Of a stretch of 64,000 nt of DNA, positions 2,355-37,823 are shown piece by piece. The position numbers were made by a program, and so were the translations under genes. The stretch spans positions 672,001-736,000 of the forward strand of contig CBDDDZ010000005.1 of NCBI GenBank assembly GCA_965226795.1, given 5' to 3'. Origin of the DNA: Candidatus Latescibacterota bacterium. Lineage in GTDB: Bacteria; Latescibacterota; UBA2968; GCA-2709665. The notes under the pieces are model-generated. The model saw nothing but the letters and a program-made list of their open reading frames with translations. It was not told the origin of the DNA and ran no database searches. The stretch's first letter is position 1. Every line of letters starts with the position of its first letter.

Positions 2355-4685
2355 ATGCCTGTCAGCAAGTCAGTAGGCGCCAGAATCAAGCGCAGGGAAG
2401 ATCCCCGGTTGATTCAGGGCCTTGCGGAGTACGTAGACGACATCCAACTGCCCGGAACGCTGCACGTCGCCGTCGTCCGCAGCCCGTACGGACACGCGCA
2501 CATCCGGGGCATCGACACCGCCGCCGCCGCAGGCCACCCCGGCGTGGCCGCCGTGGTTACCGGCAACGATCTCAAAGACAATATCGGCACCGTTCCCTGC
2601 GCCACCACCGATCCCGTAGCCTTTCCCGGCATCCAGGTCCCGGAGCATCCGGTTCTGGCCCATGGCAAAGTGCGTTTCGTAGGCGAGCCGGTCGCCGCCG
2701 TCGTGGCCGACTGTCCCTATACCGCCACGGACGCGGCCGAACTCATCGAGGTCGACTACGACCCGCTCGACGCCGTCAATTCTGCCGAGACCGCGCTCAG
2801 GGACGGCGCGCCCCTGCTGCACGAACAGTTCGGCAGCAACCAGGCCTTCACCTGGGCCATTACCGGTGGCGACATCGACGACGCCTTCGCCCAGGCCGAC
2901 CGTGTGGTCAGACAGCGCTTCGACCACCAGCGTCTGGTCCCGAGCCCCCTGGAGACCCGGGGCGTTGTCGCCCGGTTTCAACCCGGCGACGGGAAACTCA
3001 CCGTCTGGTCTTCCACCCAGATCCCGCATCTGCTCAAGACCCAGCTGTCCATCATTCTCAACCGGCCCGAACAACTCGTCCAGGTCATCGCCCCCGAAGT
3101 GGGCGGCGGCTTCGGCTGCAAGCTGAACGTGTACGCCGAGGAAGCCCTGGTGGGGTATCTCGCAATCCAGCTCAAAAAGCCGGTCAAATGGATCGAAAGC
3201 CGGCGGGAGAACTTCCTGCACACGATCCACGGGCGCGACCAGATCGGCGACGTGGAAATCCCTGTCAAGAACGACGGAACCATCCTGGGCCTCAGATACA
3301 CGGTGCAGGCCGACGTGGGCGCCTACTATCAACTACTGACCCCCGCCATCCCGACCCTCACCGGATTGATGCTCTGCGGCTGTTACAGGTTCCAGAACGT
3401 CTCCATGGAACTCACCGCCGCCTTCACCAACAAGATGGCCACCGATGCCTACCGTGGCGCGGGGAGGCCGGAAGCCACCTACCTCGTCGAACGCATGCTG
3501 GACTGCGTGGCCTTCGATCTGGACATGGATCCACTTGAGGTCCGCCGCAAGAACTTTATCGGCAAAGACGAGTTCCCGTTTACGTCCGGTACGGGCGTCG
3601 CGTACGACAGCGGCAACTACGACAACGCGCTGAACAAGGCGCTCAGGAAGATCGACTACGAGGGTTTCCGGAAGGAACAGGAAGAGGCCCGCGAACAGGG
3701 CCGGTACCTGGGCATCGGCTTCTCTACCTACGTGGAAATCTGCGGGATGGGGCCCTCGGCGGCCATGCCGGCAGGCGGCTGGGAAAGCGGCACCGTTCGC
3801 GTGGACCCCACGGGCAAAGTCACCGTTCTCACAGGGGTATCGCCCCACGGCCAGGGCCAGGAAACCACGTTTGCGCAACTCATCGCCGACGGACTGGGGG
3901 TGGACATCGACGATGTCCGCATCATCCATGGCGATACCGAAGCCGTTCAATACGGCATCGGCACGTTCGGCTCCCGCGCGACCGCGGTGGGCGGCACGGC
4001 CATGGTGATGGCCATGGAGAAGATTAAGGAAAAAGCCTTCAATATCGCCGCGCACCTTCTGGAGAGCAATCCTCAGGACATCGTCGTCGAAGACGGAAAA
4101 TACGGCGTCAAGGGTTCGCCCGACCAGGGCGTGACCCTGATGGAAATATCAATGGCCGCCCACGGGGGCGTGAATCTGCCGCCGGATACCGAACCGGGCA
4201 TGGTTGCCACCCACTTCTTCGAACCCTCCAACTTCACCTATCCGTTCGGCACCCACATTGCCATCGTGGAAGTGGACGGAGACACCGGCGAAGTGGCCAT
4301 CCTGCGGTATATCGCGGTTGACGACTGCGGCAAGATCATCAACCCGATGATCGTCGAGGGTCAGATCCATGGGGGCATCGCCCAGGGTCTGGGCCAGGCG
4401 CTTTACGAGGAAGCCATTTACGACGAGAACGGGCAGATGCTCACCGGATCGTTCATGGACTATGCCCTGCCCAAGGCGCACAACCTCCCGCGCTTCGAAC
4501 TGGACAACACGGTCACGCCTTCTCCCGTGAACCCCATGGGCGTCAAGGGCGTGGGAGAGGCGGGCACCATCGGCTCAACGCCGTCCATCGTCAACGCGGT
4601 GGTCGATGCGCTCAAGCCATTCGGCGTCCGCCATATCGACATGCCGCTGCGTCCTGAAAAACTCTGGAAGCTGATGCAGGCGTAG
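2355..4685 (+). CDS. coxL: CoxL-like (form II) molybdopterin-binding large subunit
   Basis: 776 aa; GGGFGCK, AYRGAGR (3447-3467), HGQGQET, GVKGVGEAG; SD AGGAGG. Confidence 0.9.
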   Translation: MPVSKSVGARIKRREDPRLIQGLAEYVDDIQLPGTLHVAVVRSPYGHAHIRGIDTAAAAGHPGVAAVVTGNDLKDNIGTVPCATTDPVAFPGIQVPEHPVLAHGKVRFVGEPVAAVVADCPYTATDAAELIEVDYDPLDAVNSAETALRDGAPLLHEQFGSNQAFTWAITGGDIDDAFAQADRVVRQRFDHQRLVPSPLETRGVVARFQPGDGKLTVWSSTQIPHLLKTQLSIILNRPEQLVQVIAPEVGGGFGCKLNVYAEEALVGYLAIQLKKPVKWIESRRENFLHTIHGRDQIGDVEIPVKNDGTILGLRYTVQADVGAYYQLLTPAIPTLTGLMLCGCYRFQNVSMELTAAFTNKMATDAYRGAGRPEATYLVERMLDCVAFDLDMDPLEVRRKNFIGKDEFPFTSGTGVAYDSGNYDNALNKALRKIDYEGFRKEQEEAREQGRYLGIGFSTYVEICGMGPSAAMPAGGWESGTVRVDPTGKVTVLTGVSPHGQGQETTFAQLIADGLGVDIDDVRIIHGDTEAVQYGIGTFGSRATAVGGTAMVMAMEKIKEKAFNIAAHLLESNPQDIVVEDGKYGVKGSPDQGVTLMEISMAAHGGVNLPPDTEPGMVATHFFEPSNFTYPFGTHIAIVEVDGDTGEVAILRYIAVDDCGKIINPMIVEGQIHGGIAQGLGQALYEEAIYDENGQMLTGSFMDYALPKAHNLPRFELDNTVTPSPVNPMGVKGVGEAGTIGSTPSIVNAVVDALKPFGVRHIDMPLRPEKLWKLMQA

Positions 4686-4784
4686 GCTGTCTGCCCGGCC
4701 CATCGGGGGCAACGAAAACCGGGTGACGACCGGTTGAATGCGCTCGCGTGGAAGTTCAAATTTTCGATACCTGGAGAGATTACA

Positions 4785-5651
4785 ATGATACCCAGCCCAT
4801 TCGACTATTATGCGCCGAAGACACTCAGAAAGGCGCTCAGCCTGCTTCAGGAACACGGAGACGACGCGAAGATCCTGGCAGGCGGCCACAGCCTCATCCC
4901 GCTGATGAAACTGCGGTTCGCCTCGCCGGCAACCCTCATCGACCTGGGCGGTATCACGGGTCTGCGGAAGGTCGTCGCCGGAAACGAAACCATCTCCATC
5001 GGCGCCCTGGCGACGCACTACGCGGTTGAGAGCCACCGGCTGCTGAAGTCCAGGTGCGGCCTGCTCCCGGAAACCGCCTCGGCAATTGGAGACGTCCAGG
5101 TGCGCAATCGCGGTACGGTCGGCGGCAGCCTGGTCCACGCGGACCCGGCGGCGGACTGGCCCGCCACGATGCTGGCGTTGAACGCCGAACTCGACATCTC
5201 CGGCCCCGGGGGCGAGCGGAGCGTTGCCATCGGCGATTTCTTCGAAGATCTGCTCACCACCGTCATCGGCGACGACGAAATCCTCACCCGGATCCGCATC
5301 GCCACGCCGTCGGCCAACTCCGGCGGCGCGTACGTCAAGATGCACCAGTCCGCCTCGGGATTCGCCATTTGCGGTGTTGCCGCGCAGGTAACGCGGGACA
5401 ACGGCAGCTGCGCCTCGGTCGGCATCGGCATCACTGGCGTATCGCCGGTGGCCTACAGGGCTTCGGCCGTTGAAGCCGCGCTCCAGGGGGGGCCGCTGAC
5501 CAGCGAGACCATTTCGGCGGTAGCGGAAAAGGCCGCTGAAGGCGTCGAAGAGTTCCAGGAAGACCATCACGCATCGGGCGACTATCGCGCCCATCTGGCG
5601 CGGGTCTTTACCCGCCAGGCGCTTACCCTGGCCGCGGAACGGGCGGCCTGA
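4785..5651 (+). CDS. coxM: CoxM-like FAD-binding medium subunit
   Basis: LAGGHSLIPLMKLR, QVRNRGTVGGS, HADPAAD; start at ATG 4785. Confidence 0.92.
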   Translation: MIPSPFDYYAPKTLRKALSLLQEHGDDAKILAGGHSLIPLMKLRFASPATLIDLGGITGLRKVVAGNETISIGALATHYAVESHRLLKSRCGLLPETASAIGDVQVRNRGTVGGSLVHADPAADWPATMLALNAELDISGPGGERSVAIGDFFEDLLTTVIGDDEILTRIRIATPSANSGGAYVKMHQSASGFAICGVAAQVTRDNGSCASVGIGITGVSPVAYRASAVEAALQGGPLTSETISAVAEKAAEGVEEFQEDHHASGDYRAHLARVFTRQALTLAAERAA

Positions 5652-5756
5652 CAAGCCCGGGTCCATCGATTCGATGCAAGCGCGCCGTCGACGCAACCGC
5701 ACGTCTGGCGCGCGCTTGCGCGTACACACCCCACGGAGCGCGCGGAGGAGGCGCAT

Positions 5757-6266
5757 GTGAAAATCCAGGGCACCCATACGATCAATGCGCCGCGGGAACG
5801 GGTCTTCGAAATGCTCACCGATCCTGATGCTCTCGCCAGGTGTATACCCGGCGCCAGGGAACTGAAACGGGTCGATGAGAACATGTACGAATTGGAGATC
5901 AATGCGGGCGTCGGTCCAATCAGAGGCAGTTACAGCGGCACGGTTCGTCTGGAAGACCTGAACCCGCCCGTACACTATCGGATGATCGTCGATGCGAAGG
6001 GTAAGACCGGGTTTGTCAAGGGCGAAGGCAGCATCGATCTCGGCTCCGAGGGCGACGGAACGCAGGTTTCATACAGCGGCAACGTGCAACTGGGCGGCCC
6101 CGTTGCGGCGGTAGGCCAGCGCTTGCACCTGAGCGTTTCGAAGATGATGACACGACAGCTCTTCGGCGCCATCGAGGCCGAGGCCAATGCCGCTCCTGGC
6201 GAAACCGTGAAGCACGGCATCCTGCGGGACTATCTACGCGGCAAAAAGCCTGACGCCGGATTGTAG
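5757..6266 (+). CDS. coxG: CoxG/SRPBCC-family accessory protein
   Basis: APRERVFEMLTDPDALARCIPG and GGPVAAVGQRL; follows coxM; SD GGAGG. Confidence 0.85.
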   Translation: MKIQGTHTINAPRERVFEMLTDPDALARCIPGARELKRVDENMYELEINAGVGPIRGSYSGTVRLEDLNPPVHYRMIVDAKGKTGFVKGEGSIDLGSEGDGTQVSYSGNVQLGGPVAAVGQRLHLSVSKMMTRQLFGAIEAEANAAPGETVKHGILRDYLRGKKPDAGL

Positions 6267-6373
6267 CGTTTCGCGCCCGGAAAGGCTCCGGCGATGACCG
6301 GCTGCCGCGCCGGAAAGACCCATATAAACGATGTACTTCATCTCACTTGCAATTTGCAGATCTGAGTTTCCGC

Positions 6374-6739
6374 ATGCCTCACATCGACTGGAAAGATATC
6401 CCTGTCAACGAACTGGCGCCGGGCGTGCGCATTCGGGCGCCCTATGGCGAGAATCTCATGATCTCGCTGCTGGAAATGGACGAGGGCGCGGTTGTACCGC
6501 TGCATCATCACCCGCATGAGCAGGGCGGCATTATGCTGGAGGGACGGGTCGAACTCACCATTGGCGACGTCACCCGTACGGTTGAGAAGGACGCCGCCTA
6601 TCTCATTCCGCCCAATGTCCCGCATCGGGCGGTCGCCGTGGACGGCCCCGCCGTGGTGCTGGACATCTTCAGTCCCGTCCGGGAAGACTACGTGGAACTG
6701 GGCAACCGCTACATCCCGCCGGACGACTCGCCCGGATAA
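6374..6739 (+). CDS. Cupin domain protein
   Basis: VPLHHHPHEQ, IPPNVPH and DIFSPVRED cupin motifs. Confidence 0.88.
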   Translation: MPHIDWKDIPVNELAPGVRIRAPYGENLMISLLEMDEGAVVPLHHHPHEQGGIMLEGRVELTIGDVTRTVEKDAAYLIPPNVPHRAVAVDGPAVVLDIFSPVREDYVELGNRYIPPDDSPG

Positions 6740-6778
6740 ACGCGCAGGCCGCCGTGTCGCAGAGCCTGATTCGAAAAC

Positions 6779-6813
6779 AAGAGAGGGTCGGGATTTAATC
6801 CCGACCCTCTCTT
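6779..6813. terminator. Perfect hairpin between the convergent cupin and RND genes
   Basis: aagagagggtcgggatt-t-aatcccgaccctctctt inverted repeat. Confidence 0.6.
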
Positions 6814-7050
6814 CATGCATGATCAGGAAAATACACAAAATCCACATCTCTACAAATTCCCTGCCTTCGGCGGGTTTCTTAAAACCGCGAGAAGTAAGAC
6901 GGAAGAAGCAAGAAGACCACTCCGCAACCCACCGCTTTCGCGCCATCCTTCGTGATACACTCCTACTTTCCAGTTAGCGAGACTCCGGTTACGAAGGTGT
7001 CATATGACAAAGTTACCAGCCCCTCTCCCCTCTAGCCTCTCGCTGATTCA

Positions 7051-10000
7051 CTACCTCCAACCCCGTGTCTCTTCAACTTCTGGCGAAGAGAGAATAGTAC
7101 CTGCAAACCCCCTCAGGAACCCCCGCAGGTCATCCAGGTACGTATAAAACAGAGGCACCACGAATAGCGTCAATATCGTCGACGATAACAGGCCGCCGAT
7201 CATCGTGATGCCCAGCGGGGCGTAAGGTGTTCCGAGCATGGTCGCCGATCCGGCGGCCATCGGGAACAATCCGAAGATGGTCGTGAAGGTTGTCATCAGA
7301 ATGGGCCGAAACCGGTTGTACCCGGCCTCCTCGATCGCCTCCGCACGGCTCATGCCACGCACCCGCAACCGGTTAATCATATCCACAAGCACGATCGCGT
7401 TGTTAACCACCACGCCGATCAGCAGAATGATGCCCATCCGTGCCATTTCTCCCATCACCGTATCGGTCAGGAACAGAATCCAGTACACCCCCAGAAAAGC
7501 GAACGGAATGGACAGCAACACGGAAAATGGCAGGACGAACGACTCGAACAGCACGCCCATCAGCAGAAAAACACAGGTAATCGCCATGGTGATCGCAAAC
7601 GCCATCGTATCTTCCTGTTCCCGGAACCGGGAATAGGTCTCTCCCTTGTTCCAGGAATAACCCCGCGGCATGGCGAATCCGTCCATTGCCCGATCGATCT
7701 GGGCGTATAACCCCTTCATATCCTCCTTGGTGGTGTGCGCCCTCACCCACATCCGCATTTTGCCGCCCTCCCTTCGAATGGAGCCGCTGCCTTTCGTTAC
7801 ATTGAACGTGGCGAATGCCGAAAGGGGAACCTGGGTGCCGGTTTTCGACGGGAACGGAAAACTCTTCAGTTGCGCCAGCGTCTGCCGGTCGTTCTCATCC
7901 ATAAACAGGCGGACCGAAATCTCCCGATCTTTATCGTAATAGGGCGCCAGGTTGACCCCGCGCAGCTGATAGGAAATACTGCGCCCCACGGCCTGGGGTG
8001 AGATTCCGTAGGATCGCGCCTGTTCCTTGTTGATGAGCACCTGCACTTCGTTGTCCGCAAACTCCAGATTGCTGTCCACGCTCACGACGTCCGGAATGCC
8101 CTCCAACCGTTGCCGTACCGCCTCCGACAGCCCGCCCAGGACGTCGACGTCCTCGCCATAGAGAAAGACCGAAACGCCCGGGTCGCTGCGCCAACTGGTC
8201 TGTACCGACACCCGGACGCCCACAAAGCGGGGAATAAGCTTCTTGACATCCTCGATCACCTCTGCCCTCGTCATCCGCCCCTTTACGGGGAAACCGACCT
8301 TCTTTCGAACGCTCCTGTAGAACTGTTGCCACCATGTCCGGTTCGGCTCTTCTTGCAGATAGACCCGGATAAAACCGCGTTGTCGCCAGTAACCCAGCCG
8401 CACCGTTTCAATATGGTACGGTTCACGTTTCCTATCCAAAAACGCCTCGATCTGGCCTGCAACGCGTTCCATCTCGGCTTTCCTGAAATGTGGAGGTGCA
8501 GCGAACCGGATATAAAACTCATTATTCACCCGCGCCCTTCCGGTGGTTTCTTTAATATTCGCCGCCGGATAGAAAACCGAAGCAAACAGGATGATGAATA
8601 TCAAGGTTGCGTCCCGGCGGTGGCCAAGTATCCACCGCAACCCGACATGATATTGCCTTCGCAGCCCGCGGATCGACCTGGGGTCTTCCTTTATCGTATG
8701 CCTGCCGAGCGACTTCGCCGCCAGAGGAATGAATATCAGCGCCACAAAAAGAGAACCCAGGAGCGATACGACCACCGGAATGCCGATCCGCGTGAGTCTG
8801 AACGTTAACCACATGTCTCCCGTCATAGCCATCAGAGGCAGAAAGACGACCACCGTGGTCAAGGTCGCCATCGAAATGGCCATGCCCACTTCGCTCGCAC
8901 CCGCAACCGATGCCTCGCGTGCATCCATCCCCTTTGCCCGCATTCGGTAGATGTTCTCTACAATGACAATCGCGTTGTCCACCACCATGCCCATCCCCAC
9001 CATAAGGCCCATCATCGTCAGCAGATTCAACGACCAATCCAGGAAATAAAGCACGGAAATCGTCATCATAATGCACAGTGGAATCGAGAGCGTGATCAGT
9101 GCAGTCATCCTGATTGCACGCAGAAAAAACAGCAGGACCAGGGCCGCGAACAGGGCACCCCATATCCCGGTGTTGCGAATATTGGAAATCGAATCGCGTA
9201 CCGCCTTCCCCTGATCCCACATGATGTTGAACTTCGTCCCGGTATCCGCGTCGATCCGTTTCAGTTCTTCTTTCACGCGACCGGAAACACCCACCAGATT
9301 TGCGCTCGATTCCTTGTATACATCCAGTCCCACTGCTTCTTTGCCATTGATTCGCCACGATCCCGGATCCGGCGGTCTTCCATACAGCACGTCCGCGACA
9401 TCCTTCACCATGACCGGACCGAGACCGTCTGATCGTCTGATCGGAATCCTCCGGATCTCGTCCATGTGCCGGTACCGCGCCAGTGAGCGAACGAAATACT
9501 TTTTATCCCCTTCCTGTACGTACCCACCGGCAAGCGCGAAATTCTCCCCCCGTAACGACTCCACCGCGTCCCCGGGCCGGATGCCCAGCGAACGCATCCG
9601 TTGCTGGTCCATCACCACCATGATCTCTTTCCTGAATCGCCCCCAGAAAGAAACCTTGGCCACCCCGTCGATTCGCTCCAGACGCTTTTGAACCTGGCTT
9701 TCAATAAACGCCTGGACATCCTCCACGCCCGCCGGTGGCGCAACCCCCATCCAGATGATCTCCTGATCCGTCTCCTCGTTATACTTCCAAACGCCCATTC
9801 GATCGCGTAACTCAGGCGGTAACTCCAGCTTCAGGCGGTCCAGGCGGTCCATCACCTGGTTATAGGCCAGGGACATATCGGTTTCCGGACGAAACCGAAG
9901 ACCGGCCTGCGTCCAGTCTCTGCCCGCCCAGGTGCGCAATTCACGGAGGTTTTTCACCGTTCCGAAGTACCTCTCGAACAGCCGGCAGATTTCCTGGTCG

Positions 10001-10194
10001 TTCTCTTTTGGCGACGTATCCCGGCTCTCCACCCACACCCACAGCTGCTTCCGTTCCCATCCGGAAGGGAAGGCCTGCATGCGTATTTTCATGTAGGATA
10101 CGCTACCAATCACCAGCAGCGCCACCAGACACATCGTGACCGTTACCGGCCGCGATATGGAAAGCCGCGGCAATAGCGCATGTCGGTCCTTCAC
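7051..10194 (-). CDS. AcrB/AcrD/AcrF-family RND permease
   Basis: 1047 aa; RPVTV, GMVVDNAIVIVENIYR, GVVVNNAIVLVD, RFRPILMTT; 12-TM RND layout. Confidence 0.93.
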   Translation of the reverse strand: MKDRHALLPRLSISRPVTVTMCLVALLVIGSVSYMKIRMQAFPSGWERKQLWVWVESRDTSPKENDQEICRLFERYFGTVKNLRELRTWAGRDWTQAGLRFRPETDMSLAYNQVMDRLDRLKLELPPELRDRMGVWKYNEETDQEIIWMGVAPPAGVEDVQAFIESQVQKRLERIDGVAKVSFWGRFRKEIMVVMDQQRMRSLGIRPGDAVESLRGENFALAGGYVQEGDKKYFVRSLARYRHMDEIRRIPIRRSDGLGPVMVKDVADVLYGRPPDPGSWRINGKEAVGLDVYKESSANLVGVSGRVKEELKRIDADTGTKFNIMWDQGKAVRDSISNIRNTGIWGALFAALVLLFFLRAIRMTALITLSIPLCIMMTISVLYFLDWSLNLLTMMGLMVGMGMVVDNAIVIVENIYRMRAKGMDAREASVAGASEVGMAISMATLTTVVVFLPLMAMTGDMWLTFRLTRIGIPVVVSLLGSLFVALIFIPLAAKSLGRHTIKEDPRSIRGLRRQYHVGLRWILGHRRDATLIFIILFASVFYPAANIKETTGRARVNNEFYIRFAAPPHFRKAEMERVAGQIEAFLDRKREPYHIETVRLGYWRQRGFIRVYLQEEPNRTWWQQFYRSVRKKVGFPVKGRMTRAEVIEDVKKLIPRFVGVRVSVQTSWRSDPGVSVFLYGEDVDVLGGLSEAVRQRLEGIPDVVSVDSNLEFADNEVQVLINKEQARSYGISPQAVGRSISYQLRGVNLAPYYDKDREISVRLFMDENDRQTLAQLKSFPFPSKTGTQVPLSAFATFNVTKGSGSIRREGGKMRMWVRAHTTKEDMKGLYAQIDRAMDGFAMPRGYSWNKGETYSRFREQEDTMAFAITMAITCVFLLMGVLFESFVLPFSVLLSIPFAFLGVYWILFLTDTVMGEMARMGIILLIGVVVNNAIVLVDMINRLRVRGMSRAEAIEEAGYNRFRPILMTTFTTIFGLFPMAAGSATMLGTPYAPLGITMIGGLLSSTILTLFVVPLFYTYLDDLRGFLRGFAGTILSSPEVEETRGWR

Positions 10195-10448
10195 AGAAGG
10201 CTCCTGCAGGAATCGGATTCGAACAACCCGTTTATCCGCATTGGTTCTGACAGAAGATATACATCCGGTGTATCTAAAAGCAAATCTTCAGTTCGCGCTG
10301 AGGATGTGGTCGTCTCCAAATTCGTTGGGACAACCCACTGAATTTCCCCGTAATGGCCCAGGCACGGGCAATTGATATCGCCAGGCCAAATCGCCAACCG
10401 GTTTCAGCCGTCCGCTGATTGCAATTTTCTGTTTTTCTTCCTTTACAC

Positions 10449-10477
10449 TTGACAGATTGCGTCCGAAATCCTATTTT
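10449..10477 (+). promoter_or_regulatory. Sigma70-type promoter for the T-box-pheST transcript
   Basis: TTGACA (10449-10454), 17 nt spacer, TATTTT (10472-10477). Confidence 0.65.
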
Positions 10478-10484
10478 TTCACCC

Positions 10485-10810
10485 AAAGCAATGACGGAGG
10501 AAAGTAAGCCGTCCCCGACCGGAAAGGGAGGGGGCGCCCCGGACTGAAAGCGCCCTTGCGGCATGAACGGCCGAAGTTCCCTCTCGAGCTGCAACGTTGA
10601 ATGCGATTGCCGGATTCAGTCTCCGATCTGGAAGAAGGTGTGGCTGATCTCGCGGCAACCGTTACTAGGCGGCGCCGGTGACTCTCGCCGATAACAGAGA
10701 GGGGCGGTTGTGGCCGCCCGCTAAGCGGCGCCTATCCGGCGCAAATAGGGTGGTACCGCGGAAGGCATCACGTCCTTTCGTCCCTGCGGGGATGAAAGGT
10801 TTTTCTTTTT
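10485..10810 (+). promoter_or_regulatory. T-box riboswitch, Phe specifier (UUC), transcription-termination type
   Basis: Stem I has the AUGA/GA motif, AGUA..GAA S-turn, GGGAG bulge, CUGAAA loop and specifier TTC at 10577-10579. CCGTTA box about 10659; T-box AGGGTGGTACCGCG 10747-10760; antiterminator closes with TCGTCCCT. Directly upstream of pheS. Confidence 0.92.
10774..10810 (+). terminator. Intrinsic terminator of the T-box leader
   Basis: cctttcgtccc-tgcg-gggatgaaagg followed by tttttcttttt; overlaps the antiterminator. Confidence 0.9.
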
Positions 10811-10885: not shown

Positions 10886-12472
10886 GTGAAACAACCGATC
10901 GACCTGTCGTCTCTTCACGCCCTCGAAATCAAGACGTTGCGCGCCTTCGAATGTCGCGAGGACCATCAGATCACCGATGCCGGCCTTCCGGAAGCCGCAG
11001 GCATCGGCCCCGGCCAGATCCGGCGCGCCGTGGAATGGCTGCGTTCCAAGGCGCTCCTCGAGGTCGTCGGCGAAGCCACGGTCTCGACCGTCAGCCTCAC
11101 CTTATCGGGCGTCGCCCAGGCCGCCATCGGCGCCACTCCGGAAGGCGCGCTATTGATTCGGGCCGGAGAAGACCCCGCACCCACGCTCAAGGACATCCAG
11201 ACAGACACCCGCTTCGACCGGGGAGAATGGGGCAGCGCTTTCGGCGGCCTGAAGGCCGAAGGCACGATCCGGCAGGAGGGCGCCGCCATCCGCATCGCCA
11301 ATCCCGACAGCGCCGCGTTCTATACCGAAAGGCTTGTGCCGGGGCTTTTCGGGCGCTTTCAGGGCGCCGGCGACGAGGCGGTCTTGAGTCTCGGCGACTT
11401 TACGGACGAAATCCAGTCCTATATCCGGGAAAGAACGAGCAAACGCGGCAAGGGCAAGGCAGCCATCCGCGTGGACGAACGCCTGGAACGCACGTACAGC
11501 CTGACGCCGCCGGGCGTCCAGACGCTTCGCAGCATTCTGGAAACCAATCTGACCGGCGAAGAGGTCTCACGCCTCACGCAGGAAATGCTCCAGTCAGGCG
11601 ATTGGAAGAACGTCTCCTTCCGCCGTTACGACATCAGCATCAAACCCCCGCGAATTCTCATCGGCCGTCTCCACCCCTACCGCGCCTATCTCGACGGCGT
11701 TCGGCGCAAACTGCTCTCGCTCGGGTTCGAAGAAATGAAGGGTCCCCTGGTGGAAACCGAATTCTGGAACATGGATGCCCTGTTCATGCCGCAGTTCCAC
11801 GCCGCGCGAAATATCCACGACGCCTATTATGTCAGGGAACCCACCCATTCGAAGGAGAACGAAGAGCCTTTCCTATCGAACGTGGCTGAGGCCCACGCGA
11901 ACGGCGGAGCCACGGGCTCCCGCGGCTGGCGTTACGAATTCAGCCCGAAACGCGCACGTCGCCTGATCCTGCGAAGCCAGGGTACCGCGCTGTCGGCCCG
12001 TACGCTTGCTTCCGGCCCGAATATCCCTGGGAAATATTTCGCCGTCGCGCGCTGTTTCCGTTACGACGACGTCGACGCCACCCATGCCGCGGATTTCTTT
12101 CAGGTGGAGGGTATCGTACTGGGTGAGAGCATTAACTTCCGGAGTCTGCTCGGCCTGCTCAAACTCTTTGCGCTGGAAATCGCCCAGTCGGAGGACTGTC
12201 GGTTTGTGCCGGACTATTTTCCGTTCACGGAGCCCTCGGTTGAACTTCAGGCCAGGCACCCCTCGCTGGGCTGGATCGAATTCGGCGGCGCAGGCCTTTT
12301 CCGGCCCGAACTCACGCGTCCCCTCGGCGTCGAGGTTCCCGTAATTGCATGGGGTCTGGGCATTGACCGTATGGCGATGGTGGCCCTGGGTATTGATGAT
12401 ATCCGCGACCTCTTCAGCACGGACCTGGACCTGATCCGAAACGAAAGAGAAAACAGGCCGACGGCAACGTAA
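10886..12472 (+). CDS. pheS: Phenylalanine--tRNA ligase alpha subunit, archaeal/spirochaete type
   Basis: 528 aa with a long N-terminal extension; GRLHPY, EFWNMDALFMPQFHAAR, RCFRYDDVDATH, YFPFTEPS, AWGLGIDR. Confidence 0.95.
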   Translation: MKQPIDLSSLHALEIKTLRAFECREDHQITDAGLPEAAGIGPGQIRRAVEWLRSKALLEVVGEATVSTVSLTLSGVAQAAIGATPEGALLIRAGEDPAPTLKDIQTDTRFDRGEWGSAFGGLKAEGTIRQEGAAIRIANPDSAAFYTERLVPGLFGRFQGAGDEAVLSLGDFTDEIQSYIRERTSKRGKGKAAIRVDERLERTYSLTPPGVQTLRSILETNLTGEEVSRLTQEMLQSGDWKNVSFRRYDISIKPPRILIGRLHPYRAYLDGVRRKLLSLGFEEMKGPLVETEFWNMDALFMPQFHAARNIHDAYYVREPTHSKENEEPFLSNVAEAHANGGATGSRGWRYEFSPKRARRLILRSQGTALSARTLASGPNIPGKYFAVARCFRYDDVDATHAADFFQVEGIVLGESINFRSLLGLLKLFALEIAQSEDCRFVPDYFPFTEPSVELQARHPSLGWIEFGGAGLFRPELTRPLGVEVPVIAWGLGIDRMAMVALGIDDIRDLFSTDLDLIRNERENRPTAT

Positions 12473-12527
12473 CAACGTCGGAACTGGTATTCGCACGAAC
12501 GCAGTGCGCACGGATGAAGGAGCACGT

Positions 12528-14213
12528 ATGCCCACCATCACCGTCATCAGGAAAGACCTCGAGCGACTCGCCGGTCATACCTACGACCTGCCCGAACTCG
12601 AACGCGCCCTCGAGGCCGTTAAAGCCGAGGTCAAGGTCGAAGACGAATCCCGCTTGAGGATCCAGCTGAAGGATACCAACCGCCCGGACCTCTGGTCGTC
12701 CGAGGGGGTTGCCCGGCTGCTCAAGGGCCATCGGACCGGCCGGCACGACACCTATCCCTTTTTCGATGAACCCCCCGCAGAACTCGAACTCCGCGTCGAC
12801 CCGGCACTGGAACACATCCGACCCTTTATCGCAGCCTTCGCCTGTGAAGGGATTGCGGTGGACGAAGCGGCTCTGGAGCAACTCATCGAAGCCCAGGAAA
12901 AACTGGCCGACGGGTACGGACGCGGCCGAAGCGCGGTGGCAATCGGCATCTACAACGCCGCCGGTATGACTTTCCCCGTACACTATACCGCCGCCGACCC
13001 GGAGGCCGCCCGCTTTGTCCCGCTCGGGATGGAAACCGAAATGAACCTGCGTCAGATTTTGAGGATGCACCCCACCGGCGAGACATACGCACATCTTCTC
13101 GAAGGCTTCGACAAATATCCGCTCATCAGCGACAGCAGGGGAAAAGTCCTGTCTATGCCGCCCGTCATCAACAGCCGGAACCCGGGCGCCGTGGAGGTGG
13201 GGGACACCTTTCTCTTCTGTGAGGCCACCGGCACCGAACTCGACGCCGTGCTGCTCACCGTCGCCATTATGGCCGCCAACATGGCCGATCGGGGCGGCCG
13301 CATCCTCCCCGTTGACACGATCTATCCGTACGACACGCCGCGCGGACGGGAAGTCCGATGTCCTCTGGATATGACCGAACCGGTGGCGGTTGCCCTCGAC
13401 GACTTGAGAAACGTCATCGGCGGCGAAATCGACTCCGGGAAAGTCGAAGCCGCACTGGCCGGCATGGGGTACCGCAACATCACGCTCGACGGCAAACGCG
13501 TACAGGCGCGCCCCGCTCCGTATCGTGATGATATCCTCCATCCGGTGGACATCATCGAAGACGTCATCGTGAGCGTGGGCTTCGACAACTTCGAACCCGA
13601 AATGCCGCACGATTTCACCGTGGGAAAATCCGCGCCCGAGGAAGACCTCGCCGACCGCATCCGCGGCCTGATGGTCGGATGCGGATTCCAGGAACTCTTC
13701 CTCCCCATCCTTTCTTCGCGCGCGGATCTCACGGAACGCATGCACAACGTGGACGCCGCGATTGTCGAGATCTCCAACCCCATGACCGAAAATTACAGCG
13801 CGGTCCGCAACGCCCTGCTGCCCGGGCTGCTCCGGGTGGAGGGGACAAGCCGAAAGGCCGTGTATCCCCACCACATCTTCGAAGTGGGCGAGGTCTCCGT
13901 CATCGCCCCGGACGACGTCTATGGCACCCGTACCGAAATTCGACTCTCCGCGTTGGAAGCCCACGCTGAAGCCAATCTCTCGGGGATTCAGAGCCACCTC
14001 GAAGCGCTGGCCTACTACCTCGGATTTGATTACAGCCTCACGCCATGTGAGCATCCCACCTTCCTGCCAGGGAGGGCGGGCGAGATCCGGGTGGACGGAA
14101 AGATCTATGGCATTATCGGAGAAATCCATCCGGAAGTTCTGGAGAGCTGGGGCATATCCGTGCCCGCAAGCGCGTTCGAGGTCAACATCGATATCGCCCG
14201 GATACAACCCTGA
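12528..14213 (+). CDS. pheT: Phenylalanine--tRNA ligase beta subunit, archaeal/spirochaete type
   Basis: 561 aa from ATG 12528; MPTI, DTNRPDL, LSMPPVINS, YRDDILHPVDIIEDV, GEIHPEVL. Too short to hold the bacterial OB-fold and anticodon-binding domains. Confidence 0.95.
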   Translation: MPTITVIRKDLERLAGHTYDLPELERALEAVKAEVKVEDESRLRIQLKDTNRPDLWSSEGVARLLKGHRTGRHDTYPFFDEPPAELELRVDPALEHIRPFIAAFACEGIAVDEAALEQLIEAQEKLADGYGRGRSAVAIGIYNAAGMTFPVHYTAADPEAARFVPLGMETEMNLRQILRMHPTGETYAHLLEGFDKYPLISDSRGKVLSMPPVINSRNPGAVEVGDTFLFCEATGTELDAVLLTVAIMAANMADRGGRILPVDTIYPYDTPRGREVRCPLDMTEPVAVALDDLRNVIGGEIDSGKVEAALAGMGYRNITLDGKRVQARPAPYRDDILHPVDIIEDVIVSVGFDNFEPEMPHDFTVGKSAPEEDLADRIRGLMVGCGFQELFLPILSSRADLTERMHNVDAAIVEISNPMTENYSAVRNALLPGLLRVEGTSRKAVYPHHIFEVGEVSVIAPDDVYGTRTEIRLSALEAHAEANLSGIQSHLEALAYYLGFDYSLTPCEHPTFLPGRAGEIRVDGKIYGIIGEIHPEVLESWGISVPASAFEVNIDIARIQP

Positions 14214-14254: not shown

Positions 14255-15613
14255 TCAACTTGTGTCCCCCACGATATCGTAGACCCTCGCGGGATGACGG
14301 TGGTCCCGGACTTTGCTGAACAGCGCTTTGGCTTTCCGCGCCATCCCGGCGCGGCCGTAGAAGTAGATAAGGTTGCCGGCTTCGTTCGGTCTGCCGGTGA
14401 GATCCCACACCTTTTCCTGCATGCCCACGGCCCGTTCCCAATCTCCCAGGTGAAATGCCAGATATGAACCCATCTGTCTGAGTGCGACGTACGCCCAGAT
14501 GGTCTTTATGTCCAGTCCGTACATCGTCTCATAGACAGGATAGGCCTGGTCCCATCGGTTTTGCCGGGCAAGCGACAATGCGAGGTAGTTCAGACACTTC
14601 TGGTCTCTCGGAGCCAGCTCGACCGCGCGCCGGGAAACCACTTCCATGGCCTTGAAATCCCGCTTCCACAGGAACATCTGCGCTTTCGCGGTAAGCGCGA
14701 CGATGTCATCGGAGATCTGCGCAAGCCGGGTATCGCACAACGCCATGCAGTCGTCAACCGCCCTGGCCTGCTCTTGCGGGTCGTCCCGCCGCGCGGTGGC
14801 GAGCGCCAACGCGACCTCTATTGAATTGGGCAGCGCCTTTGCGGCTCGTTTCAGGGTAGCCGTCTCTTCCTCGGACAGGACCCTGATCGGGTCGCCGGTC
14901 GTTCCCAGTTCCATAATCGCGTCGGGATGGTCGGGACATACTTCAAGAGCTTCACTGAATCGTGCCCGCGCCGCGTCTGTCCTCATGTACAATCGATCCG
15001 TCCTTCCCTGTTCAAGGAGACGGGCAATGGTCTCCTCAACGAACCCGTCGGGCAGGTCGTTCCTGCTACTTTCGTCTCGTGCCATGCGGATGACCTCCTC
15101 CTGAAGTTGCTTGCGCGCCCTGTAGAGGCGCTGCTTTACGGCGCCGTGAGTCGATCCGACCAGAGAGGCTATGTCCTGGATGGAATACCCGTCCAGATAG
15201 AGCAGCGTGAACGCCTGTACGCTCTTCCGCGGGAGTCGCGAAAGCAGTTCCTGCAACGCCGCGTTGCGAATGATCGGTGCGTCACCGTGTTGATCCCGAT
15301 CCGTCGCCCCGCCAACCGACTCTATCGTGGCCAGACGCCGGCGATTCTGTCTCAGCCTGTTCAGGCAGATGTTGCGAAGTATCCGGCTGACCCATGACAG
15401 AAAACGGGAAGGATCCTCCAGCGCTTCGAGCCGGATGAACGACGTCAGGAATGCTTCCTGGAGCGCGTCTCTCGCGTCCTCGTCGGCGTGCAGGTATCCC
15501 AGCGCCTGGCGGAAGAGGCGGTTCCCGTGGCGTGTCACCAGGGTCTCGAACGCGGCGAGATTGCCGGAACGTGCGGCGCCGGCCAACCGGGCGTCTGTGG
15601 GCGGTCTATCCAT
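14255..15613 (-). CDS. ECF sigma factor with C-terminal TPR-like extension
   Basis: DARDALQEAF, FLSWVSRILRN (region 2), GYSIQDIASLVG..GAVKQRLYRAR (region 4), then about 270 aa of helical TPR-like repeats. Confidence 0.85.
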   Translation of the reverse strand: MDRPPTDARLAGAARSGNLAAFETLVTRHGNRLFRQALGYLHADEDARDALQEAFLTSFIRLEALEDPSRFLSWVSRILRNICLNRLRQNRRRLATIESVGGATDRDQHGDAPIIRNAALQELLSRLPRKSVQAFTLLYLDGYSIQDIASLVGSTHGAVKQRLYRARKQLQEEVIRMARDESSRNDLPDGFVEETIARLLEQGRTDRLYMRTDAARARFSEALEVCPDHPDAIMELGTTGDPIRVLSEEETATLKRAAKALPNSIEVALALATARRDDPQEQARAVDDCMALCDTRLAQISDDIVALTAKAQMFLWKRDFKAMEVVSRRAVELAPRDQKCLNYLALSLARQNRWDQAYPVYETMYGLDIKTIWAYVALRQMGSYLAFHLGDWERAVGMQEKVWDLTGRPNEAGNLIYFYGRAGMARKAKALFSKVRDHRHPARVYDIVGDTS

Positions 15614-15804: not shown

Positions 15805-15892
15805 TGGTGCCGAAGGGGGGACTCGAACCCCCACGAGCACAAGGCTCACTGCGCCCTGAACGCAGCGCGTCTACCAATTCCACCACTTCGGC
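15805..15892 (-). tRNA. tRNA-Leu(CAG)
   Basis: GCCGAAGTGGTGGAATTGGTAGACGCGCTGCGTTCAGGGCGCAGTGAGCCTTGTGCTCGTGGGGGTTCGAGTCCCCCCTTCGGCACCA: cloverleaf, long variable arm, anticodon CAG, encoded CCA. Confidence 0.97.
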
Positions 15893-36668: not shown

Positions 36669-37130
36669 TTACGCTGTATTCACTGAATCCAGACGCGAGA
36701 TCATAGTTTCGATTTTGCGTTGGATTTCCTCCTTGTTCTCAATCAGGGAAGCGTTATCGTCGTAAATGGACCGGAGGCGTTCCCTTTCGGTCTGCAATTC
36801 GGAGATAGCCTGGTCCTGGTTTTCCAGCCGTTCCTGAAGCTCATGTTTGCTCTGCTGTAGTTCGGCGATTTCCCGTCGTAACTGTTGGATAATATCCACA
36901 GCGCGATCGATTTCACCAATAAGGAGATCAAGTTGTTCGGAAACGCGATTTTCCGACTCCAGCCGGTCCTCCTCCCGGTCGTCGGTTTCGGGCTGTCCGT
37001 CTGCCTTGACGGGCGTTTCTGCTGCATCATCCGACATCGACTGTACGTCCGTCTGTTCGACAGATTCGAACGGATTGTCGTTTCGAATGCCGGAATCCAG
37101 CTGTTCGTTTACCCGGTCTTGCGCTTCCAT
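36669..37130 (-). CDS. ZapB-like coiled-coil protein with an acidic N-terminal extension
   Basis: Heptad-rich C-terminal half ending KIETMISRLD; lies directly upstream of zapA. Confidence 0.65.
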   Translation of the reverse strand: MEAQDRVNEQLDSGIRNDNPFESVEQTDVQSMSDDAAETPVKADGQPETDDREEDRLESENRVSEQLDLLIGEIDRAVDIIQQLRREIAELQQSKHELQERLENQDQAISELQTERERLRSIYDDNASLIENKEEIQRKIETMISRLDSVNTA

Positions 37131-37219
37131 GTATTCACCCTTTCATCGCTGTCGGTTTTTCCCGATCGGTTTTTTTCAGTGAGGGGAAAAATATACGTTT
37201 GCGTAACCCTACACTACGC

Positions 37220-37248
37220 AATGTAATGCCTCCATGGCCTAAAGTCAA
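37220..37248 (-). promoter_or_regulatory. Sigma70-type promoter for the zapB-like/zapA/rny run
   Basis: TTGACT (37248-37243), 17 nt spacer, TACATT (37225-37220). Confidence 0.6.
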
Positions 37249-37340
37249 GGGTGGGATACCATACTTGACGCACGGGGAGCGAAAACGGAATCGATGCGAG
37301 GGGACGCTTTTCTGATGGATTCCGCGACTTGGAGGGCAAT

Positions 37341-37694
37341 TTACAGGTGTTGTCGGGCCTGTTCAGCCAGCGCTGTGAATGCCGCTGCATCCGTGATTGC
37401 GAGGTTGGCCAGAACTTTCCGGTCGACGGAAATATCGGCTTTTTTCAGGCCGCTGATCAGGCTGCTGTAGGACAGCCCGTTAAGCCGGGCGGCGGCGTTG
37501 ACCCGAACGATCCACAGAGAGCGGAAATTTCTCTTTTTTTGACGACGGTCCCTATACGCATAGGAAAGCGCATGGTTGACGGCGTCGTCCGCGGTGCGGT
37601 ACAGCTTGCTTCGCCCGCCCCGGTATCCGCGCGCGGCTTTCAGTACTTTTTTCCGTCGGCGTCGCGAAGCGACGCTATTCGTTGATCTCGACAT
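37341..37694 (-). CDS. rplT: 50S ribosomal protein L20
   Basis: [43 protein letters not shown] 37694. Confidence 0.97.
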
Positions 37695-37823
37695 GTCGAT
37701 GGTCTCCTTGTAGCGCCTGGCAGTGTCAAGGGCAGGTGTTGCCGCGCCCGCCATGGCCTTCTAATGATGAACCCCTGTCTGCTCGCGGGAAGGGAACTTC
37801 CGAAATAAAGGGGTAACAGCCCG

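Follow-up and report, generated by a model that had tools for sequence, protein, structure and literature searches.

Here we describe a phenylalanyl-tRNA synthetase (PheRS) locus, pheST, in a window of 64,000 nucleotides from a Candidatus Latescibacterota bacterium (assembly GCA_965226795.1, contig CBDDDZ010000005.1, positions 672,001 to 736,000). The two genes encode an archaeal/eukaryal-type enzyme, and throughout the host's order (GCA-2709665 in the GTDB lineage) such genes have replaced the native bacterial ones. The overall explanation that we consider probable is that, in a presumed ancestor of the order, the native genes gave way to what is now the sole pheST of the genome, that this pheST likely came from another bacterium, and that it is under the predicted control of a phenylalanine (Phe) T-box riboswitch (Table 1). 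Archaeal-type PheRS in spirochaetes and Phe T-boxes in Bacillota are already known (PMC3191353, PMC7778990). A full-text literature search, outside of which most subscription journals and supplements lay, found no report of an archaeal-type PheRS in Latescibacterota or Nitrospirota or of this T-box, and such transfers may be visible already in large surveys of marker genes or synthetases.

Table 1. Features of the pheST locus and of the native pheST site, in window coordinates
Feature	Position	Strand	Remarks
Predicted sigma70-like promoter, TTGACA-17-TATTTT	10449..10477	+	10/12 matches; 0.3 expected in shuffles
Phe T-box leader (predicted)	10482..10780	+	Stem I, Stem II, further stems, antiterminator; RF00230 E 7e-15, 69.2 bits
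Specifier codon UUC (Phe)	10577..10579	+	GAAG-TTC invariant in 16/16 aligned leaders
T-box bulge UGGU	10751..10754	+	Complementary to the ACCA end of tRNA-Phe (A73)
Intrinsic terminator hairpin (10774-10799) and U-run	10774..10809	+	Overlaps antiterminator; 9 core pairs kept in 16/16 leaders
pheS	10886..12472	+	GTG start, 528 aa; archaeal/eukaryal-type alpha: N-terminal winged-helix-like extension and class II catalytic core
pheT	12528..14213	+	ATG start, 561 aa; archaeal/eukaryal-type beta without bacterial OB (B2) and FDX-ACB (B8)
Vacated native pheST site	37131..37340	-	210 bp, from rplT (37341-37697) to zapB-like coiled-coil gene (36669-37130)

The original prediction, made from the letters alone, had proposed a PheRS of the archaeal/spirochaete type from the sizes of the two subunits and from three motifs. 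The sizes agree with the translated open reading frames (for pheT, the frame finder starts at an upstream GTG at 12504 and gives 569 aa), and LRSQGT, DATHAADFFQVEG and DTNRPDL are all found in the window translations. Profile scores, matches in the PDB, the PheS tree and the fold match of alpha bear out the assignment. Indeed, the beta subunit scored 475.7 bits against the archaeal model pheT_arch (TIGR00471), well over its cut-off of 282.65, and 106.5 bits against the bacterial model pheT_bact (TIGR00472), below its cut-off of 402.65. Similarly, alpha scored 521 against the long-alpha model PRK04172 (cut-off, 350), which covers residues 9-521. As predicted, a Pfam scan of beta found neither an OB-fold nor an FDX-ACB domain and returned only the B5 and CLM domains, while PheT proteins from Latescibacterota genomes outside the order match YtpR/OB models and the full pheT_bact model. 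The window pheST thus departs from canonical bacterial enzymes, in which alpha has ~340 aa and beta ~800 aa and passes pheT_bact, and falls in the size range of the archaeal/eukaryal type (alpha about 500 aa, beta about 550-590 aa). In sequence, window PheS is ~30% identical to the bacterial PheS of other Latescibacterota and 50-54% identical to the archaeal-type PheS of Nitrospirota.

The structural comparisons point in the same direction. In the PDB, alpha is closest in sequence to cytoplasmic alpha chains of eukaryotes (E 1e-61 to 1e-64; bacterial chains, ~1e-33), and residues 1-352 of beta best match the archaeal beta fragment 2cxi (E 2e-64), which we take to be from Pyrococcus. Beta is colinear with 2cxi from residue 1 and carries its CLM domain at the C terminus as in 3l4g_B. 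An AlphaFold model of alpha (predicted local distance difference test score, 89.7; predicted template modelling score, 0.56) has folded N-terminal alpha/beta domains, and its top fold match is the human cytoplasmic PheRS alpha chain 3l4g_C (545 columns, E 7e-34, template modelling score 0.46), the domain orientation being unsure. Winged helix-turn-helix matches in Pfam were obtained with alpha homologues (DUF2582 in 18/65, MarR_2 in 15/65) and none with the window alpha itself. Going by family knowledge and the model, alpha would carry out Phe activation and, through its winged-helix-like N-terminal domains, make up for the absence of the bacterial B8 domain that binds the anticodon. Beta would retain the editing (B3/4-like), B5 and CLM domains. 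The intact motifs and the status as sole copy suggest an alpha2beta2 enzyme that makes Phe-tRNA and edits Tyr.

The original prediction had further proposed replacement of the bacterial enzyme rather than addition to it, and this is borne out by the genome having only one pheS and one pheT and by an empty site between rplT and the zap genes. The host assembly is a metagenome-assembled genome (MAG) of 5.41 Mb in 5 contigs, 95.9% complete and with 3.5% contamination. Genome-wide, we found one PF01409 match and no bacterial pheT, and when bacterial PheS and PheT from genomes outside the order were used as queries, only the locus at 10886-14213 matched; a second, bacterial-type pheST was not found in the genome. 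One further weak match to TIGR00472, in a 634-aa frame, spans model positions 43-123 only and was rejected as a pheT. The closest relatives of the locus are 22 loci with 64-88% identity (17 from Candidatus Latescibacterota, 3 from Gemmatimonadota, and 2 unclassified). Nitrospirota come next with 50-54%, and the spirochaete enzymes, at 42-45%, stand behind both Nitrospirota and Eisenbacteria (50-54%). The GC content at third codon positions of pheST (0.75-0.76, versus 0.67-0.73 in five other window genes) gives no sign of a recent arrival.

To follow the replacement across the phylum, 161 genomes of at least 70% completeness were sampled, 53 of them from the order and 108 from elsewhere. An archaeal-type pheT was present in 50/53 order genomes (48 over the cut-off, one split across two contigs, and one fragment); the remaining 3 are fragmented assemblies with no match. 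Outside the order, 0/108 genomes exceeded the archaeal cut-off, 107 gave weak matches only, mostly in frames of ~800 aa, and two of these weak matches that were typed are pheT_bact. No order genome had a second, bacterial match, and none of the 161 genomes had both types. The native site itself can still be seen in the window, where the minus strand reads thrS-infC-rpmI-rplT, the 210-bp gap, and then zapB-like, zapA-like, rny, ymdB-like and xseA genes, the zapB-like gene being named from its position and coiled-coil appearance, without a model match. In 4/4 genomes outside the order, the same gap is filled by pheS (336-386 aa) and pheT (787-799 aa). Within the order, a zapA-like gene follows rplT after 349-993 nt, without pheS, in 30/30 loci (30 of the 50 genomes). 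The order infC-rplT-pheST-zapA-ymdB-xseAB has been described for other phyla of the Fibrobacterota-Chlorobiota-Bacteroidota (FCB) group (PMC9727166) and is therefore likely to be the ancestral arrangement.

Other arrangements of archaeal-type pheST around this site were also observed. In one locus from a bacterium (L215, 790-6371), the genes stand directly before zapB-like and zapA-like genes, 6S RNA and rny, apparently in the native position. In three Nitrospirota loci (L057, L026 and L044; about 4000-9500), they follow fmt-rsmB-rpe and lie head-to-head with rplT-rpmI-infC-thrS, which is near the native site but inverted.

We next turn to the origin of the genes. A PheS tree of 64 rows, picked by similarity to the query, was built with IQ-TREE under LG+C20. 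In line with the original prediction, the order fell among archaeal sequences, together with archaeal-type bacterial carriers and apart from canonical bacterial PheS. It was monophyletic (100/99) and lay within a 28-row group (97/94) with Nitrospirota, including Leptospirillum, one Eisenbacteria protein and unlabelled rows. This group and the spirochaetes formed a 35-row clade (99/98) without any named archaeon. Three unlabelled rows branched next outside it, followed by a clade (100/95) that includes a Woesearchaeota protein and then by Nanoarchaeota-labelled proteins, the last two groups being the nearest named archaea. A PheT tree of 44 rows, without spirochaetes or named archaea, agreed with the PheS tree (100 for the order, 99 for the wider clade), with a sister locus, L230 (97), that lies among genes resembling archaeal ribosomal ones. 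A topology in which the order is constrained to join the Woesearchaeota clade was rejected by an approximately unbiased (AU) test (p-AU 0.0045; 32 rows, LG+G4, with the tested group named after the trees were seen). Because the order groups with other bacterial carriers and the grouping with the Woesearchaeota clade was rejected, the donor was likely another bacterium. The proposal of a bacterial intermediate therefore stands on the trees and the AU test; the riboswitch, which had been put forward as evidence for it, does not serve, since a Phe T-box is on no sampled carrier outside the order and so does not by itself identify the route of transfer.

The carriers are widespread. In Nitrospirota (the phylum of Nitrospira moscoviensis), 155/251 sampled genomes exceeded the archaeal pheT cut-off, and on the FCB side the type is carried by Eisenbacteria (P0340) and Fermentibacterales (P0095). 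A viral vector was considered and dropped, no relative having been found among viral contigs. Tentatively, and short of an even chance in our judgement, the spirochaete transfer may trace back, as one branch among others, to one ancient acquisition from a DPANN (Woesearchaeota/Nanoarchaeota-like) archaeon and not from Thermococcales. The enzyme would then have reached no fewer than five bacterial phyla (spirochaetes, most Nitrospirota, the Latescibacterota order, Eisenbacteria and Fermentibacterota) without a shift of the tRNA to G20, and in the order it would have travelled as a self-regulating module that introduced tRNA-sensing T-box control to a phylum without it. Andam and Gogarten named Thermococcales as the nearest archaea of the spirochaete PheRS (PMC3191353). 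Since our rows were chosen by similarity and include no named Thermococcales, that donor is questioned here and not refuted.

Two variants of this enzyme were noted in passing. Three loci (L210, L218 and L226), whose hosts are presumably Chloroflexota-like, hold a distinct subclade of the same PheRS after aroA-, aroE-, tyrA- and tyrS-like genes, recognised by eye; a T-box was not found there. A spirochaete-like PheS of 690 aa (P0014) has an insertion of ~170 aa in its N-terminal region.

Upstream of pheST, the riboswitch seen in the original prediction is real: the RF00230 match, the UUC specifier, the UGGU bulge and covarying stems all agree (Table 1). Sixteen homologous leaders of the order pass the RF00230 gathering score, with up to 111 bits. 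In an alignment of 16 leaders of the order, 20/33 RNAalifold pairs change on both sides and 97% of cells pair. None of 500 shuffles reached as high, a control that is inflated by the relatedness of the sequences. Predicted folding energies are -13.8 kcal/mol for the antiterminator and -19.3 kcal/mol for the terminator, which have one strand in common. From this anatomy we predict a switch that turns pheST on when uncharged tRNA-Phe accumulates. The tRNA would pair through its GAA anticodon with the specifier UUC and, when uncharged, through its free ACCA end with the UGGU bulge, so that the antiterminator is stabilised and transcription reads through; without ACCA-UGGU pairing, the terminator would halt transcription. 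Assembled RNA contigs from four libraries of two studies, the depth of which cannot rank leader against genes, cover the leader, pheS and pheT in pieces, and one spans the terminator. Two of them, one per study, begin at 10499 and 10498, and none lies over 9900-10382, which is a weak hint of the promoter.

An RF00230 scan found no other T-box in the host genome. T-boxes were detected in 42/50 order genomes versus 1/90 outside, where the single one precedes a leuS-like gene, and in 28/29 order loci pheS is directly downstream of the leader, the 29th being cut off by the end of its contig. A T-box is missing from five near-complete genomes that belong to one genus of the order, and in 4/22 named loci the DNA before pheS is unrelated to the leader; these leaderless members read as cases of later leader loss. 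Stray T-boxes of other kinds were seen in the phylum, namely the leuS-linked one just given, which is a Leu T-box (L115/L309, genome G100), and a Trp-type one (L310, genome G058) that precedes a trpE-like gene on a contig of 2 kb, which may be foreign or misbinned.

The tRNA has kept its bacterial character. The single tRNA-Phe of the host carries U20, U45, U59 and A73, the bacterial identity set, while archaeal and eukaryal PheRS use G20 as a determinant (PMC9976931). U20 was found in 48/50 genomes of the order and 130/140 in the phylum, and co-adaptation of the tRNA to G20 was accordingly rejected. The lack of G20 in the cognate tRNA concerns the tRNA and not the family of the enzyme. In Nitrospirota, U20 was present in 29/29 tRNAs (14 from archaeal-type genomes, 14 from bacterial-type, and 1 untyped), a count biased by being made on best matches to a U20 query. 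The window PheRS would have to charge this U20 tRNA, the only tRNA-Phe of the host, and judging from the tRNA sequence it likely does so without a G20 contact.

To trace the leader, a Stem I profile of the order was run on other T-boxes. Bacillota pheS leaders scored 26.4, 23.8, 17.4, 5.1 and -0.3 bits, and the 51 non-Phe T-boxes reached at most 10.1 (31 other Bacillota leaders) and 4.6 bits (20 Nitrospirota leaders). Thus, 3/5 Bacillota pheS leaders (17.4-26.4 bits) outscore all 51 non-Phe T-boxes, which lends modest support to descent of the order leader from a Phe-type leader. Inheritance from Nitrospirota together with the genes was rejected: T-boxes occur in 37/150 Nitrospirota genomes, one each, and the 20 that were read (L282-L301) all have a Leu CUC specifier, 17 of them before what we presume, from a motif, to be a leuA-like gene. 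A change from CUC to UUC in such leaders is unlikely because they score at most 4.6 bits with the profile. In the explanation that we favor, the enzyme would have passed from archaea (nearest named, Woesearchaeota/Nanoarchaeota) to bacteria and then between phyla. A cassette, probably already equipped with a T-box of the Phe type in some T-box-using bacterium outside the sample, would have inserted at a new site, after which the old pheST would have been deleted from the rplT-zap operon and the leader lost in some descendants.

Several observations weigh against this explanation. The core Phe T-box motif was absent before archaeal-type pheS in all 57 Nitrospirota loci that had an upstream stretch of 390 nt or more and in all 57 metagenome loci that had one of 700 nt, and Rfam found no T-box on archaeal-type pheST in any of 7 Nitrospirota and 10 metagenome loci, so a donor with genes and leader together has not been observed. 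With the specifier columns removed, the margin of the Bacillota Phe leaders shrinks (20.0, 7.8, 7.6, 4.5 and 0.9, versus a maximum of 7.4), and two of the five are low with or without these columns. At 69.2 bits, the window leader falls below the RF00230 gathering score of 93, for which reason a default Rfam scan misses it. In the trees, 15/35 rows of the wider PheS clade bear no taxon label, no named Thermococcales are present, and the sister of the order varies (80/10 in the PheS IQ-TREE; Fermentibacterales, 94, with FastTree; Eisenbacteria-like, 90, in PheT).

The same absence of a Phe T-box from every other sampled carrier of this PheRS clade, the likeness of the leader to Bacillota pheS leaders and the lack of archaeal-type pheS among 58 plasmid-collection pheS hits speak for an arrival in two steps. 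Genes and T-box would have come separately, the coding part of a Bacillota-like T-box-pheST cassette being swapped later or the leader being added afterwards. We regard this as unlikely: leader and genes share one order-wide boundary, none of the 90 outside-order genomes has the intermediate, a T-box with a bacterial pheST, and two rare events would be needed on one branch. Since the trees give no direction inside the bacterial clade, where inner nodes are weak, the order or an FCB-side relative (Eisenbacteria, Fermentibacterota) might instead have received the enzyme straight from an archaeon and then supplied other bacteria. We find this quite improbable, as spirochaetes and the protein P0010 branch outside the 28-row group of the order, the Woesearchaeota grouping was rejected, and the order sits inside a set of lineages whose pheST is bacterial. 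The several FCB-side carriers would also suit an ancestor of several phyla that had both PheRS types, with descendants dropping one and no late transfer; this is still less credible, because none of the 161 genomes of the phylum has two types, the clade also takes in spirochaetes and Nitrospirota, and many independent losses would be required. Finally, despite the MAG origin and contamination of the assembly, an archaeal or foreign contig is refuted by host-like GC, the recurrence in 50 genomes and the position of the genes on a contig of 3.1 Mb, where the host thrS-infC-rpmI-rplT lies 23 kb away.

Around the locus, an AcrB-family resistance-nodulation-division transporter gene (7051-10194, minus strand) is divergent from the T-box promoter. 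A gene for an extracytoplasmic function-type sigma factor fused to a tetratricopeptide repeat-like C-terminal region (14255-15613, minus strand) is convergent with pheT, and a tRNA-Leu(CAG) gene (15808-15892, minus strand) lies near pheST.

The enzymology and the switch mechanism are in themselves ordinary. What is unusual is how clean this natural cross-domain swap of an essential translation enzyme is, being an order-level marker with a visible scar, and the known range of archaeal-type PheRS is widened well past spirochaetes by its presence in most Nitrospirota genomes sampled. The combination of an archaeal-type synthetase, a bacterial T-box and a tRNA of bacterial identity makes it possible to ask by experiment whether G20 recognition is relaxed and whether regulators travel with genes. 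PheRS alpha and beta also serve as single-copy phylogenetic markers (PMC5569505), and trees built with them can hence misplace these lineages.

Compared with known systems, the locus is closest to the archaeal-type PheRS of Spirochaetaceae (Borrelia, Treponema and Spirochaeta), with subunits of 513-528 and 514-573 aa (PMC3191353). In both cases, the two subunits are archaeal in type and size, the bacterial enzyme has been replaced, the replacement marks a clade, and the PheS proteins fall in one clade. The Latescibacterota case differs in belonging to another phylum, in its Phe T-box leader and in its visible empty native site, and its nearest named archaea in our sampling are Woesearchaeota and Nanoarchaeota rather than the Thermococcales of that study. 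The leader resembles the transcriptional T-box leaders (RF00230) upstream of Bacillota pheST in having a Stem I with UUC, the specifier in 99% of Phe T-boxes according to Table 1 of the TBDB paper (PMC7778990), as well as a UGGN bulge and an antiterminator/terminator pair. Unlike them, it precedes an archaeal-type enzyme in an uncultured Gram-negative phylum nearly devoid of T-boxes outside the order, has a Stem II region with a long insertion and scores below the gathering cut-off. Likewise, human cytoplasmic PheRS (3l4g) and 2cxi are the best fold match of alpha and the best sequence match of beta, respectively, but the window PheRS, unlike those enzymes, would serve a tRNA-Phe that has U20, U45 and U59 and lacks the G20 determinant described for archaea and eukaryotes (PMC9976931).

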